Position numbers and translations under genes: made by a program. The notes beneath the pieces are model-generated. The model saw only the letters and a program-made list of their open reading frames with translations, ran no database searches and had not been told where the DNA came from. This document shows positions 4,047 to 50,780 of a DNA stretch of 64,000 bases, piece after piece. Position 1 is the stretch's first letter. The number at the start of each line of letters is the position of its first letter. Source of the DNA: Octopus vulgaris (taxonomy: Eukaryota); assembly GCA_951406725.2 (NCBI GenBank), contig OX597820.1, positions 7,998,001 to 8,062,000 of the forward strand. The letters run 5' to 3'.

Positions 4047-4253
4047 ACGTCGCGTGTGTACCGTTGGCGATTTTTTTCCCTCCGTCTTCCCTTCCTTGGA
4101 TCTTTCCTTTTCCTATGTTTCTGACGAAGAGCTCCGCTCGAAACGTTAAATCCTCCTTCTTTCTTTCCTTTCCTGAGCGTCCAATAACACTATACTTGTT
4201 CCACGTCCTCGCGTGGTTGTGTTTTCTCTTTGTGTTTTCATGTTTGGATTAAC
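4047..4253 (+). mobile_element. Short hammerhead-bearing module in (TA)n, family H1 (Penelope pLTR/retrozyme-like)
   Basis: ~205 bp; close second copy at 47156-47362; both flanked by (TA)n; contains a hammerhead core. Confidence 0.7.
4117..4151 (+). ncRNA. Minimal type-I hammerhead ribozyme motif
   Basis: GUUU-CUGACGA-A-GAGC(UCC)GCUC-GAAA-CGU-U-AAAU: intact core, extra A after A9, 4-bp stem II, palindromic ACGU stem III. Confidence 0.65.
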
Positions 4254-4357
4254 TATATATATACATATATACATATATATACATATATATATATATATAT
4301 ATATATATATATATATATATATATACGCGTGCGTGTGTACATGCATGTATATATATA

Positions 4358-5390
4358 TGGTTTCCCAAAATTAAGGCGACCAACCTTTTTTTAATTTTGC
4401 CAAAACAAAATATTATATTTCGGATCCGAGTGTTGCGTTACAATGGTAAAGGAAACACAATTATGACACTACCATATTTATTCGATATGACCACCTCTGT
4501 TTCAAACCCCAGCCTTAAGTCTAGGCGCGAATGCTTCACACGTGGCACACGGCTGTTCTTGCGGAAACGAAGCCCATTCCTGGCGCAGTTTCGCCGTCGA
4601 GCGAAGCATCGGGAGTGCTGGAGACTCTCATCTCCAAAATGGACCAAACAGAAAACTTCAACGGGTTGAGATCAGGGTTCCACGAGGGCCATACATTTCT
4701 TCCTATGAAAGACGGAATGTTTTTTTCTGAATCCAGTGTTGTGTCGGTTCGGAGCTGTGGGGCTGGTGCCGAGTTCTGTTGGAGGCTCCAAGGTGTACCT
4801 TGAAAGCGCTCATTCACCCGTAGAATCAGTTCAGCTTCCAGAATATCACTAATGTATTGTTGGGGGTTAATTTTAACACCCGGGGTCACAACACGAGCGA
4901 AGACCTTTCAGTGGCTGTCATTGTCACCCAAACCATAAATGACTAGATTTTGACGTCGATTTATGAGTCTACCCTCAACGGAACCAGAAACCTTCCAAAG
5001 TCGGTTGTATATATAAGATCCAGGAATCGAGGTGTAGTACGTAAAAAAAAATGTATAGAGCATTGGAGTTTGATGTAAAGTACCTTACAGGATTTAGCGG
5101 ATTTCTGATAAGAAGATCCCAACATTTTCTGATCGACGAAATCCAGCAAAAGTCATCAGTTGAGTTCACTTCTCTATGTAACAAACGTCTTCATAGCACA
5201 ATAAATTATTCTCTGACCTTCAGTTGATTCTCGATCACAAAATGTTGACGACAGCTCCATCTGGAGCAAATACATTAATAATAAAGTGGATATGAACCCT
5301 TGGATGCTCAAAAGTTCCCGGACCGAAAAACCGTGTCATCTTTCTTTTCTCTAACTTTTTTTAAATAGGCGCACATTGAGAACCACTCTG
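4358..5390 (-). mobile_element. Decayed Tc1/mariner superfamily transposon (DD37D/maT-like)
   Basis: Minus ORF 4536-4889 has GVKIN...Y, LQQNSAPA and WPSWNPDLNPLKFSVWSILE (degenerate QQDSAPAH / WPPxSPDLNPLDY); ends approximate. Confidence 0.75.
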
Positions 5391-5455
5391 ATACATGCTG
5401 TGGTTGCCCCATACCAAGCAAAACAGCATCAGAAGAAAACCACGTTATCTTTCAT

Positions 5456-5788
5456 CTTTTAACCTTTGTTTCTTTCAAGCATTAGACTGCGGCCATGCTG
5501 AAGCACATTTTTTTAAACCTGTTACTTATTTTATCGGTTCTTTTGCCGAACCGCAATGCAACGGGAACGCGAACAAGCCAAGCGTTGGTGGTGGACAAAC
5601 ACAGATACAAACACTTACACACAGTAATATACGTATATAAGACGGGCTTCTTTCAGTTTCCGTCTACCAAATCCATTGACAAGGCTTTGGTCGGCCTGAG
5701 ACTATAATAGAAGACACTTGCCCAAGGTGGGGACTGAACCTGGAACCATCTGGTTTGGAAGAAAGCTTCTTACCACACAACCACATCT
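5456..5788 (-). mobile_element. SINE family C, degenerate copy
   Basis: Reverse complement matches 14195-14612 (gacggaaactgaaagaagcccgtc, cagcatggccgcagtc). Confidence 0.8.
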
Positions 5789-6265
5789 GAGAATACATTA
5801 GAAGGCAATTATCAAATGAAATATATAAGCATGACATGCCTTCCTTACAAGAATCCGCCCAAACATTCGGAGTTTTCTTTTTCTTATGGCTACCATTAAA
5901 AGTTGCATCAATTATACGATGTGAAAAATGTCAGCAGAATTGTCCATTTGATATAAACATTGAGTTTATATAACATACATTCTTATATGCATACATATAC
6001 ATATATACATTGTTCATTCATATAAATAAATTTGTGTGCGTATGTGTGTGCGTGTGTGTGAATATATACAAATACACATATATACATATATATATATGTA
6101 TGTATGTTTATATATATATATATATATATATATATATATATATATATATATATATATATATATATATATATATATATATGTACATATAAGTTTGTATACA
6201 TGATGTGTGTATGCATGAACATATATATATACATATATACATACATGTGTGTGTGTGTGTGTGTG

Positions 6266-6735
6266 TAATCGATCAGAAGAAAATAGATGGCATGACAGGC
6301 CTTGATTATTGGAATCGTCTCGAAAAACTCATTCTTTATTCTCTTCAACATGGCCACAAGTGTTATATCATTTGTATGATGAGCAAAATATTCCAACAGC
6401 TCTTCCCAAATGATGTTGGCATCCGCTTTAAAATTCACCTGAGGCTTGGTCCCCGTGCTATCCGTCCTCGACAAAAGTCATAATCACGTCACATCACAAC
6501 ATTCTAGGATGCGTGAGAAAAGAAAAAGACCCCTTAATATTTAAACGGTTCCTGGACGAATATCTCCACCGAATTCCAGATGAACCACCTAACCCCGGAT
6601 ATATCTCTGCAAATAATAACTCTCTGCTCGAATGAGCCATGATGCCCATGGAAAGACTCGTATCAAACACATTTTATGTGGTGCTATTAAGTTAGACATG
6701 GTCTGGGCAAATATCGTCCTAAACTTGTCTAAGTA
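6266..6735 (+). mobile_element. CR1-like LINE 3' fragment
   Basis: [23 protein letters not shown]; homologous to the minus-strand copy at 47765-48627. Confidence 0.75.
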
Positions 6736-6742
6736 ATATATA

Positions 6743-48627: not shown

Positions 48628-48640
48628 AAATATATATATA

Positions 48641-48782
48641 TATCCTTGTTGCTTATTTTGATTATAATCACCTTATTTTAAATTATATGGATATAATACC
48701 ATACTAAATTCTGGTGCCTTCAACTTAAGTACCATATTCATCTGAATCTAAATTTTTACTGAACTTATCTATAAGTATATAA
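48641..48782 (+). mobile_element. 3' fragment of module H5 in (TA)n
   Basis: Reverse-complement similarity to 49665-49783; (TA)n on both sides. Confidence 0.7.
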
Positions 48783-48907
48783 TATGTATGTATATATATA
48801 TATATATATATATATATATATATATATATATATATATATATATATATATATATATATATATATATATATATATATATATATATGTATATACATATATATA
48901 CATACAT

Positions 48908-49130
48908 ATCATCATCATTATCATTTAACGTCCGCTTTCCATGCTAGCATGGGTTGGACGGTTCAACTGGGGTCTGGGAAGACAGAAGGCTGCACCAGGC
49001 CCAGTCTGATCTCGCAGTGTTTCTATGGCTGGATGCCCTTCCTAACCACTCCGTGAGTGTAGTGGCTGCTTTTTACATGCCACCGGCACAGGTGCCAGAC
49101 GAGGCTGGCAAATGGCCACGATCGGATGAT
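48908..49130. mobile_element. Short interspersed repeat with (CAT)n end (RTE-associated SINE-like)
   Basis: catttaacgtccgctttccatgctagcat recurs inverted at 49624-49655; ggctggatgcccttccta motif. Confidence 0.55.
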
Positions 49131-49145
49131 GCTTTTATATATATA

Positions 49146-49527
49146 CTAGTAGTATCGCCCGGCGTTGCTCAGGTTTGTAAGGGAAATAACTATAAAGCAT
49201 TTTTAGAGAGTTATAGCCAAAAAATAGCAAAAAAATGGAAAAAAATTATGGTAAATTTTTTTTGAGAGTTAAAAAAGGTGGAGTTGCGTCCCCTAGACAG
49301 TTTGTGGTTTGTGTTTCTGATTCTCGACCCCATGTCGAATTTATCGATTTTTTTCAGAACTGGGGGAACTTTTCAAAATTTTCGCTGCGTTAGTTTTGAA
49401 TTATGACATTGGGCTATGTGTGTGTCAAGTTTCATCAGAATCGGTTGAAAGCCGTGGTCAGGGTGAGGGTACAAGCAAACAGACACACAGAAACACACAC
49501 AGACAAACTGCCGTTTATATAGAGAGA
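49146..49527 (-). mobile_element. Non-autonomous Helitron-like element
   Basis: Minus strand starts TC(tctctatataaacggca) and ends cctgagcaacgccggg-N9-CTAG, between A and T. Confidence 0.7.
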
Positions 49528-49659
49528 TATATATATGTGTGTGTGTGTGTGTATATATAATATGTGTGTATATATATATATATATTGTATATATATGTTA
49601 TATATACATATGCTAGCATATATATGCTAGCATGGAAAACGGACGCTAAACGATGATAT

Positions 49660-50780
49660 ATATTATAGCAAAAATTTTGATTCAGGTGAATATGGTACTT
49701 AAGTTGATGCACCAGAATTTAGTATGGTATTATCCATACTATTTCAAAGTAAGGTGATTAAAATAAAAAAAAACAAGGATATCCAGAGGTAATGCTGTAC
49801 GATCATTTCATGTAACTCCATTTAATTGAACAACACAATCATTGCATCAATTTAAAATGTAGAGCAATCTTCAGCTGCACAAAGACATAGAATTTAATTA
49901 AATTTAACAGATGGACACAGTAGTATAATTATACCTAAAATCTCCAAGCAGTTAAGGAGATAGACAAAGAACATGTTGTTTCTACTTCAGCATAGAAGTT
50001 ACTAAAATTATCAAGAAGATTCTGCCTGCCACTGATTTTTTTTTTGTCTTTATGGGGTCAGTTTTAATTTATAGACTAGTTTATCAAATAACTTGTATAT
50101 CTAAGTCTGAGGGAACAGAGGGCAGTATCTATTAGGGGTAGGGCTGAGGTAGTAGACATACATTCTAGTTGGTATAGTCATAAAAAAATCAAGATTTATT
50201 ATAAGCAATATCATGAGGTTTAGTAAGGGAAAACTTAAAACAAGATGTTAGCTGATAATTAAGGGAATCGCTCACTAGCAGACTATTGATAATGAAACAG
50301 GGGGAGTCTTATCATGTGGTTAAATATTTTATCAATGTTGCTATATTGTATACAGTTAAAGTTTAGGGTTATTCAAAGGATTATTAAGAAGAATATTATA
50401 ACAAAAGGATAGAAATTTATATATACTTTTGAGTATATACCAAACTTTTAGCACAACAGAGGGAGGAAAAGAAATTATCCAGAAATAGTTTAATATTTAT
50501 ACATATTGTACACTTAAATACTAACTCATCAGATGGTGTCTGCGAATATTGATTAATTGGTATATCCTGGTATTAATAAAGGAGTATTGAGGTAAAGGAA
50601 AATGCTAATTATATGTTAATAGAATTTTAATCTAAGCAGTATTTTTATAAGTAGTGACTAGGTTTAAGAAGTTATTATTGTTACTCCCTACATGTTATTT
50701 ATAGTTTCTTAGTGGTACTTGTTTGGAATAGTTATCATTATAAAGGTCCTAATACACACTAAGATCAGGAGGGTAGAGTG
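49660..50780 (-). mobile_element. AT-rich Penelope-like remnant (H5) with decayed hammerhead at 49793-49879
   Basis: Minus: UGCAG-CUGAAGA-long stem II-GAAA-UGAUCG-UA^-CAGCA; extent beyond 49900 uncertain, no ORF recognised. Confidence 0.45.

Follow-up and report, generated by a model that had tools for sequence, protein, structure and literature searches.

The window analysed here, a 64,000-nt stretch of octopus DNA, carries seven hammerhead-like motifs, each ordered as stem I, CUGANGA-like core, stem II, GAAA, stem III, UH and stem I (Table 1). All seven folds of the original prediction were recovered at their places in the sequence, well above chance, and their exact bounds were determined. 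They belong to five families, H1 to H5. H1a, H2 and H3 have the core and stems of a type-I hammerhead; H5 has the core with decayed stems. The hammerhead is intact in H1a, which has an additional base ahead of stem II, and in H2, and the H3 copy shows a C-C mismatch at the stem I base. Core or stem defects are present in four of the seven copies, and six motifs have only a palindromic stem III, which needs a partner to be completed. The rule of an invariant U4 and A6 is broken only in H4 and part of H1. As H1 and H4 are one superfamily sharing a ribozyme frame, the five predicted families reduce to four ribozyme types.

Table 1. Hammerhead-bearing features of the window
Feature	Position	Strand	Remarks
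H1a, 5'-truncated PLE end	4047..4253	+	ribozyme, ~106-nt tail, then (TA)n
H1a minimal hammerhead	4117-4150	+	core CUGACGA, palindromic stem III, predicted cut after 4147
H2, head-to-head remnant of Hydra-type PLE pseudo-LTR	20895..20986	+	short-arm 3' end
H2 inverted partial arm	20895-20917		
H2 hammerhead	20922-20970	+	full stem III, U-U at stem II base, predicted cut after 20965
Separate H2 insertion, ribozyme core absent	31302..31407	+	long-arm tail, then (TA)n
H3, end of ORF-less tandem unit	38863..39260	-	~288-nt tail, then (TA)n
H3 hammerhead	39148-39230	-	long stem II, palindromic stem III, predicted cut after 39154
H4b	39256..39424	+	H1-related, ~95-nt tail, then (TA)n
H4b minimal hammerhead	39298-39333	+	A6U core
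H4a	46786..46960	-	~93-nt tail, then (TA)n
H4a hammerhead	46876-46908	-	A6C in homologous register; stem I damaged
H1b, second H1 copy	47157..47362	+	flanked by two (TA)n runs; 90% to H1a
H1b hammerhead	47229-47263	+	core change U4C
H5 tail fragment without ribozyme	48640..48775	+	86% to H5 tail, between (TA)n runs
H5, 1.1-kb piece of ~2.9-kb element	49665..50777	-	~133-nt tail
H5 hammerhead, decayed	49793-49879	-	stem I mismatch, changed stem III, predicted cut after 49798

A relaxed type-I descriptor, applied to 150.7 kb made up of the first 50.7 kb of the window and 100 kb of DNA next to it, gave 14 matches, where 30 block-wise dinucleotide shuffles averaged 0.23. Five of the seven window motifs pass it; H4a and H5 fail because their stems are broken. 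Genome-wide, the exact 24-nt H2 pattern occurs 4,097 times and the exact H1/H4 pattern 37,321 times, with 0 matches in the controls for either. About 20 sequence-distinct families, counted by eye, retain pairing despite different stem letters, so that the stem covariation suggested as a check is seen by inspection, and the motif is present in 137 of 149 copies retrieved via the tail alone. Comparison with Rfam returned no hammerhead family among the best 150 of 227 matches; these were miRNA matches only, driven by microsatellites and below the gathering score, and were rejected. Together with the two copies that fail the descriptor, this is what speaks for chance matches in repetitive DNA, an explanation that the descriptor counts, the exact patterns and the paired stems leave with practically no probability. 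The descriptor matches number 9 in the neighbouring 100 kb and 5 in the 50.7 kb of the window; the proposed dense community (7 in 50 kb) is therefore of ordinary density for this genome. The predicted (TA)n targeting is borne out: (TA)n lies 3' of the end in 21/29 copies of H1, 25/25 of H2, 21/24 of H3, 18/24 of H4 and 19/24 of H5, that is in 72-100% across families compared with 9-18% at random positions.

The H2 family includes full-length elements. Its tail, previously deduced by joining the window remnant to the 31302 insertion, which folds back immediately downstream of the predicted cut, is the true family tail (loci L107, L111 and L113). Locus L229 consists of a hammerhead, a tail, a 718-aa open frame, 3.1 kb of further sequence and a second hammerhead, plus an inverted 5' arm, and L231 has the same junction with a 722-aa frame. 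The ORF contains RWR, DKT, CxCx5C, CxxC and CxH motifs and by eye resembles the Hydra rows of a published alignment; all 150 EN copies scored are 95-100% identical. H2 thus appears to be the pseudo-LTR of a young Hydra-type PLE (Penelope-like element) with intact RT+GIY-YIG copies, the clade being assigned by motif and by eye. With the Hydra clade, as described in the available text of Craig et al. 2021 (PMC8557442) and including Hydra-1_Obim of Octopus bimaculoides, H2 shares the RWK-like and DKT motifs, the CxCx5C linker, CxxC and CxH without CCHH, a C-terminal GIY-YIG, the (TA)n target, a canonical hammerhead, and a tandem and inverted layout with a tail at one end. It differs from the clade as described there in its true pLTRs, in the ~3 kb of microsatellite-rich sequence that separates ORF and ribozyme, and in a tail of ~70 nt instead of 30-40 nt. 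Protein and hammerhead also differ, by eye, from those of Hydra-1_Obim. The kind of element is therefore already known, and H2 would represent a further family beside Hydra-1_Obim. What this leaves of the novelty is limited: both the architecture and the target are already on record for PLEs, among them Hydra and Naiad families of octopus that prefer (TA)n, but H2 is not Hydra-1_Obim.

The first 100 H2 matches contain 40 head-to-head pairs and no tail-to-tail pair, and in 23 of 24 two-armed insertions a long outer end is paired with a short one. Arm junctions fall at the 5' edge of the ribozyme in 19/40, an edge that coincides with a 3' splice-acceptor-like sequence. H2 insertions might be built from two RNA templates, one primed per start site, and joined mostly at this edge.

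A second link to coding sequence was found for a subfamily of H1. Locus L249 has two identical 146-nt pLTRs 6.2 kb apart, which carry the hammerhead and terminate in (TA)n, with a frameshifted RT+EN frame between them that contains GxxF, DKG, Cx4CxxC and CCHH. Neptune-type PLEs, as presented in the available text of PMC8557442, have a Cx2-5CxxC linker and a CCHH endonuclease; by motif, the L249 frame, with its DKG, is alike and would be Neptune-like. The H1 subfamily of the window is 75% identical to the L249 pLTR. No ORF was found on this subfamily, and an inverted arm is not evident in H1. Like H4, the window's H1 subfamily occurs mostly as ~200-nt solo pieces.

H4 is the most abundant hammerhead of this genome, with at least 18,774 exact A6-less motifs. 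A6 is present in just 3/89 copies, which sets H4 apart from Neptune-type elements; across the 89 copies N7 is free and H17 is never G. H4 otherwise retains C3, U4, G5, G8, A9, the extra base 9b, G10.1-C11.1 and the palindromic stem III. A shifted register would give H4a a canonical CUGAAGA, but neither stem I nor stem II holds up in it, for which reason it was rejected. At locus L251, an RT-EN remnant 55% identical to the L249 frame lies ~600 nt upstream of an H4 copy; this association, seen in 1 of 10 upstream regions compared, could be mere adjacency. Opposite-strand H4 copies occur in 2/25 H4 loci. Lunse et al. reportedly describe small variants of the PLE hammerhead whose cleavage occurs in dimers, and A6 variants or octopus sequences may already be among them. 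Neither the A6U core of H4 nor the U10.1-U11.1 base of H2 and H5 is mentioned in the available text of Cervera and de la Pena 2014 (PMC4209133).

H3 and H5 differ from these families in lacking a recognisable ORF. H3 is a non-coding head-to-tail unit of ~600 nt, with 27 exact tail-spacer junctions and, at a few loci (L258 and L287), a tandem pair of ribozyme regions; of 24 tandem copies whose 5' end could be mapped, 2 extend back across a second ribozyme. Its arms have two end points, separated by 98 nt, and inverted arms are present in both H3 and H5. No ORF was found in 52 H3 loci, a hit at L271 having been rejected as a nested element after (GAA)n. H3 pieces are covered by assembled contigs of four presumed-RNA runs, contigs that are uninformative on ends, strand and circles. 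For H5, no ORF was recognised in 2.9 kb, and a Pfam search, covering six frames of a long copy and three frames of another, had no match above cut-off. A decayed, internally repeated frame lies on the opposite strand of H5. Since both lack an ORF, H3 and H5 are likely non-autonomous, and H3 is likely a PLE derivative without genes of its own. A different origin would make all five families stand-alone retrozyme-like RNAs that lack any coding part, cleave, ligate to circles and are reverse-transcribed into (TA)n. The H3 unit, its exact junctions and its tandem ribozymes fit this origin, and copies exceeding one unit suit a circular or tandem template (the model of PMC4209133 and PMC7229834); H3 may also resemble metazoan non-LTR retrozymes, as far as these are described in PMC7229834 and bioRxiv 10.64898/2026.07.22.740005, its tandem unit being non-coding and bearing a type-I hammerhead. 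H3 is, however, mostly solo or 1.5 units long, exceeds the ~300 nt of metazoan retrozymes, and has a minimal, not a canonical, ribozyme, and the ORFs on H2 and the L249 subfamily have no place among such RNAs. A retrozyme origin suits H3 and perhaps H5, and is unlikely for the set as a whole.

We instead regard the modules, with a probability of about 85%, as hammerhead-bearing ends of PLEs: H2 and the H1 subfamily flank RT+GIY-YIG genes, while H3, H5 and the majority of solo copies were probably copied into (TA)n by those enzymes as 5'-truncated or gene-less products. A single RT+GIY-YIG ORF, as expected of PLEs, is associated with H2 (L229 and L231), the H1 subfamily (L249) and one H4 copy (L251), and with neither H3 nor H5 in the copies examined. 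Hammerhead-bearing pseudo-LTRs in partial tandem occur at L229, L231 and L249 and in the tandem H3 copies. We observed two alternative 3' ends as well as tandem and inverted layouts; (TA)n 3' flanks, head-to-head arms and two such ends are published PLE traits. Motifs, flanks and ORF linkage uphold the original prediction of PLE-type minimal type-I hammerheads, a retroelement origin and solo pseudo-LTR remnants. Its statement that no recognisable ORF is attached holds inside the window and fails elsewhere for H2, the H1 subfamily and one H4 copy, so the five cannot all be short non-autonomous elements; nor are all modules short, as H5 alone takes up 1.1 kb. The window motifs are 3' remnants of 5'-truncated PLEs and not one community of short modules. 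Minimal hammerheads of metazoan PLEs, in the available text of PMC4209133, likewise have a short or palindromic helix III, an unpaired base between 9 and 10.1 and, as in H1 and H4, G10.1-C11.1. They too form many families per genome, mainly as solo copies, with opposite-strand pairs and a few copies that flank an ORF; octopus is not among the species named there.

The priming chemistry and the role of the ribozyme can be modelled on the available accounts in PMC11167929, PMC8557442 and PMC4209133. A tandem pLTR-ORF-pLTR element would be transcribed, and the PLE protein would nick both strands of (TA)n DNA. Two internal RNA positions, ~20-290 nt downstream of the hammerhead, would serve as starts of reverse transcription, which would proceed back through the ribozyme and mostly halt early, so that the short pieces produced have a fixed 3' end. 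A pair of cDNAs, each primed from a different strand, would then unite head-to-head, giving one long-end and one short-end arm. In the available description of Poseidon of Anolis (Frangieh et al. 2024, PMC11167929), the hammerhead likewise adjoins the ORF start, two internal RT start sites account for the tail, and both strands of AT-rich DNA are nicked; unlike in Poseidon, the octopus ends lie upstream of the start codon, 70-130 nt apart. In master elements the ribozyme would be under selection, and any cutting would take place in tandem transcripts, by dimers or with the aid of protein, whereas decayed solo copies are probably inert.

Self-cleavage of the window motifs is a prediction, and among H2 and H3 copies no pile-up of genomic 5' ends was found at the predicted cut. 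Of the H2 fold-backs, just 28 have their junction downstream of stem III; in 3 of these, as in the 31302 copy, it lies at the palindrome next to the cut. The 5' ends of tandem H3 copies, mapped for 24 of 27 loci (3 unmapped), are scattered over positions 22 to 366, with none at the cut (97). From these data, the idea that the RNA being copied owes its 5' end to ribozyme cleavage is rejected for now. The role of the hammerhead in PLEs is termed unclear in PMC8557442, and cutting was dispensable in vitro (PMC11167929). The defects in four of the seven window copies, together with the need for a partner to complete stem III in six, make it doubtful that solo copies cut read-through transcripts, as had been proposed for any such transcript. 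A broader effect, in which dispersed solo motifs cut host read-through RNA and shape the transcriptome, could draw on tens of thousands of copies, on the full 4-bp stem III of H2, with which monomer cutting might occur, and on U-U being the best tolerated mismatch at 10.1-11.1 (PMC3088659). We consider it highly improbable: apart from the state of the window copies, single minimal hammerheads were uncleaved and dimers slow in the available text of PMC4209133, the anole PLE hammerhead required protein and showed no RNA ends at the cut as reported in PMC11167929, and no host exon was recognised within the window.

More tentatively, H4 might be an A6U ribozyme that needs a partner and the PLE protein, or else a non-cutting handle for dimerisation and protein binding, and the H2 ribozyme might pair two RNAs for double-ended insertion rather than cut. 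H4, which is A6-less, and H1, in which A6 is present in the same frame, form a matched pair, provided by nature, in which to ask whether selection acts on catalysis or on the fold only. For annotation, tens of thousands of short octopus-type repeats become classifiable as PLE ends, and the intact young Hydra-type element with its mapped tail ends offers a substrate for studying (TA)n targeting and two-armed insertion.

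All seven hammerhead motifs of the window, which fall into five sequence families (H1 to H5), were located where originally reported. A relaxed type-I descriptor gave 14 matches in 150.7 kb, compared with 0.23 in shuffled sequence, and accepted five of the seven motifs, rejecting H4a (one of the two H4 copies) and H5 for damaged stems. The window does not have the special motif density first attributed to it, because 9 of the 14 matches lie in the adjoining 100 kb. Across the assembly (2.8 Gb, 227 contigs), a first look returned 1,189 H1, 2,309 H3, 2,918 H4 and 2,722 H5 candidates, of which 40 per family were scored; exact patterns matched 4,097 times for H2 and 37,321 times for H1 and H4 together, with no control matches. 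In 1.23 Mb of loci selected for carrying these motifs, a descriptor that itself requires a palindromic or paired stem III gave 194 distinct matches, sorted by eye into about 20 families, each with its own stem letters.

The expected (TA)n enrichment of the flanks was seen in all five families, above random background. Among copies ranked by similarity, (TA)3 follows the 3' end in 21/29 (H1), 21/24 (H3), 18/24 (H4) and 19/24 (H5), against a random background of 9%, or 16% for H5, where the interval searched was wider. For copies in genome order, (TA)3 stands 80-125 nt past the ribozyme in 19 of 30 H1/H4 copies (background 18%), and at either 35-41 or 105-116 nt in all 25 H2 copies. The window otherwise contains many microsatellites, SINE-like repeats, broken mariner and LINE frames and, at its end, a 58-bp satellite.

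Repeats of the window and frames nested in H2 elements at loci elsewhere in the assembly (L-numbers). PLE, Penelope-like element; RT, reverse transcriptase.
Feature	Location	Strand	Remarks
58-bp purine-rich satellite	window 50794-64000		>210 copies, ~95% identity; continues past window end; truncates 5' side of H5 copy
1.4-kb element of SINE-like sequence	window 42532-43964		394-bp inverted arms, 97% identity
Tandem array, 185-bp SINE-like unit	window 18798-19704		4.9 copies
Tandem array, 39-bp unit	window 24711-25752		26.7 copies
Presumed mariner-like transposase frame and LINE RT fragments	window 6759-7730, 15166-16095, 17278-17988, 48195-48677		labelled from translations
LINE-type long open frame in H2 element	L131:4761-7877		1039 aa
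LINE-type long open frame in H2 element	L143:1403-4447		1015 aa
Intact RT+GIY-YIG PLE in H2 element	L133:4352-6664	-	771 aa; GIY-YIG above, RVT_1 just below Pfam cut-off

The suggested linkage to RT and GIY-YIG endonuclease (EN) frames was found for H2 (L229, L231) and an H1 subfamily (L249), with a remnant near one H4 copy (L251). The description of the modules as ORF-less stands for the H3 and H5 copies examined, but not for H2 and the H1 subfamily, which surround ORFs.

H2 matches are arranged as head-to-head pairs, the long ones enclosing the ORF. In L229 a hammerhead and its tail precede a 718-aa open frame, after which come 3.1 kb of microsatellite-rich DNA and a second hammerhead; the 5' end bears an inverted arm. 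L231 has the same junction and a 722-aa frame. The protein carries RWR, DKT, YRDDG, CxCx5C, a GIY-YIG-type end, CxxC and CxH, marks described for the Hydra clade in the accessible text of Craig et al (2021; PMC8557442), and by eye it fits the alignment rows of that clade. It has 328 database relatives, the sole named one among the 120 listed bearing a GIY-YIG label, and pieces of it found no match in Pfam. The accessible supplement of the same paper contains Hydra-1_Obim and two octopus Naiads, all with a (TA)n preference; compared by eye, Hydra-1_Obim has a different hammerhead, making H2 a separate family. H2 is young, with 95-100% identity in all 150 scored EN copies; a 225-aa open frame holds most of them, and frames of 680-720 aa hold a few. 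The first 100 matches include 40 head-to-head and no tail-to-tail pairs, 19 of the 40 junctions fall within 10 nt of the core, and the two outer ends differ, one being long and the other short, in 23 of the 24 two-armed insertions that were examined. An inverted 5' copy and a tail at one end only are published PLE traits, the tail of an anole element being explained by two internal start sites (PMC11167929, in part).

The H2 spacer between ORF and ribozyme (L229, L231, L135) is about 3 kb long, microsatellite-rich, and contains an old H3-like fold-back insertion that was copied with the element. Across L169-L198, most young copies share the 225-aa EN frame, separate from the RT frame, with a shared frameshift or an assembly effect as candidate causes. 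A run of six C occurs in 23 of 24 copies read.

H1 and H4 have a single ribozyme frame in common. In L249, two identical 146-nt pseudo-LTRs of the H1 subfamily, 75% identical to the window H1 copy, surround a frameshifted RT+EN frame whose marks (DKG, Cx4CxxC, CCHH) point to a Neptune-like protein. In L251, some 600 nt separate the H4 copy from an upstream remnant with 55% identity to this protein; no such stretch occurs in the nine further H4-type upstream regions that were compared. The motif is present in 137 of 149 H1/H4 copies located by tail alone, which are not a random sample because their loci were fetched with motif-bearing queries. Identity between H1 and H4 is 0.82 in the ribozyme versus 0.53-0.58 in the flanks, a comparison inflated by its requirement for the core pattern. 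Among 89 H4 copies, position 6 is U in 73, C in 13 and A in 3, N7 varies, G never occurs at H17, and conservation in the rest of the core is 94% or higher, except for a CpG at 15.2. Exact A6-less motifs number 18,774 genome-wide. A natural A6C variant cuts slowly (PMC3088659, accessible text), and a literature search on the A6U core surfaced only twister work.

Upstream of H3 lie a 219-nt spacer and another tail, giving a unit of about 600 nt in which no ORF was found; its arms, frequently inverted, stop at two sites 98 nt apart. H3 fits a PLE derivative of the non-autonomous kind, the origin put forward for retrozymes in the available portions of bioRxiv 10.64898/2026.07.22.740005 and PMC7229834, with RNA circles putative for H3. 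H5 copies reach about 2.7 kb upstream, with the 5' starts of three of the four longest falling inside a span of about 10 nt, and their body consists to 67% of internal repeats with no ORF recognised, including by Pfam. The H5 ribozyme resembles that of the intact PLE nested in L133. After this PLE comes one more hammerhead family, whose core is U4C. Decayed, Lys/Ile-rich, internally repeated frames with no Pfam match lie on the other strand from the H5 ribozyme in L156 and L163.

Hammerhead-bearing PLE ends are already in print as a kind, and the octopus families are new members. Literature searches on octopus hammerheads, with or without Penelope, and on Penelope hammerheads with microsatellites yielded nothing on these families beyond the accessible text of Craig et al. 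A 2026 Octopus vulgaris repeat paper tallies Penelope-like families, hammerheads and ribozymes being absent from the available main text (PMC13282606).

In H2 the 5' edge of stem I carries an AG with a branch-like motif, which in H5 stands immediately before the core; as a lead only, it may be likened to the Drosophila Penelope intron, which ends at helix I (PMC4209133, in part). The original prediction that solo motifs could cut read-through transcripts gives way to a different reading, in which solo copies are probably inert by-products and selection on the ribozyme would act in master elements. We favour it because single minimal PLE hammerheads do not cleave and dimers are slow (accessible text of PMC4209133), the anole hammerhead needs protein and is dispensable for insertion (PMC11167929, same portion), and no pile-up of genomic 5' ends was found at the predicted cut in H2 fold-backs or H3 copies. 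What is selected may be the cutting of tandem RNA, by dimers or with help from protein, or else the fold itself.
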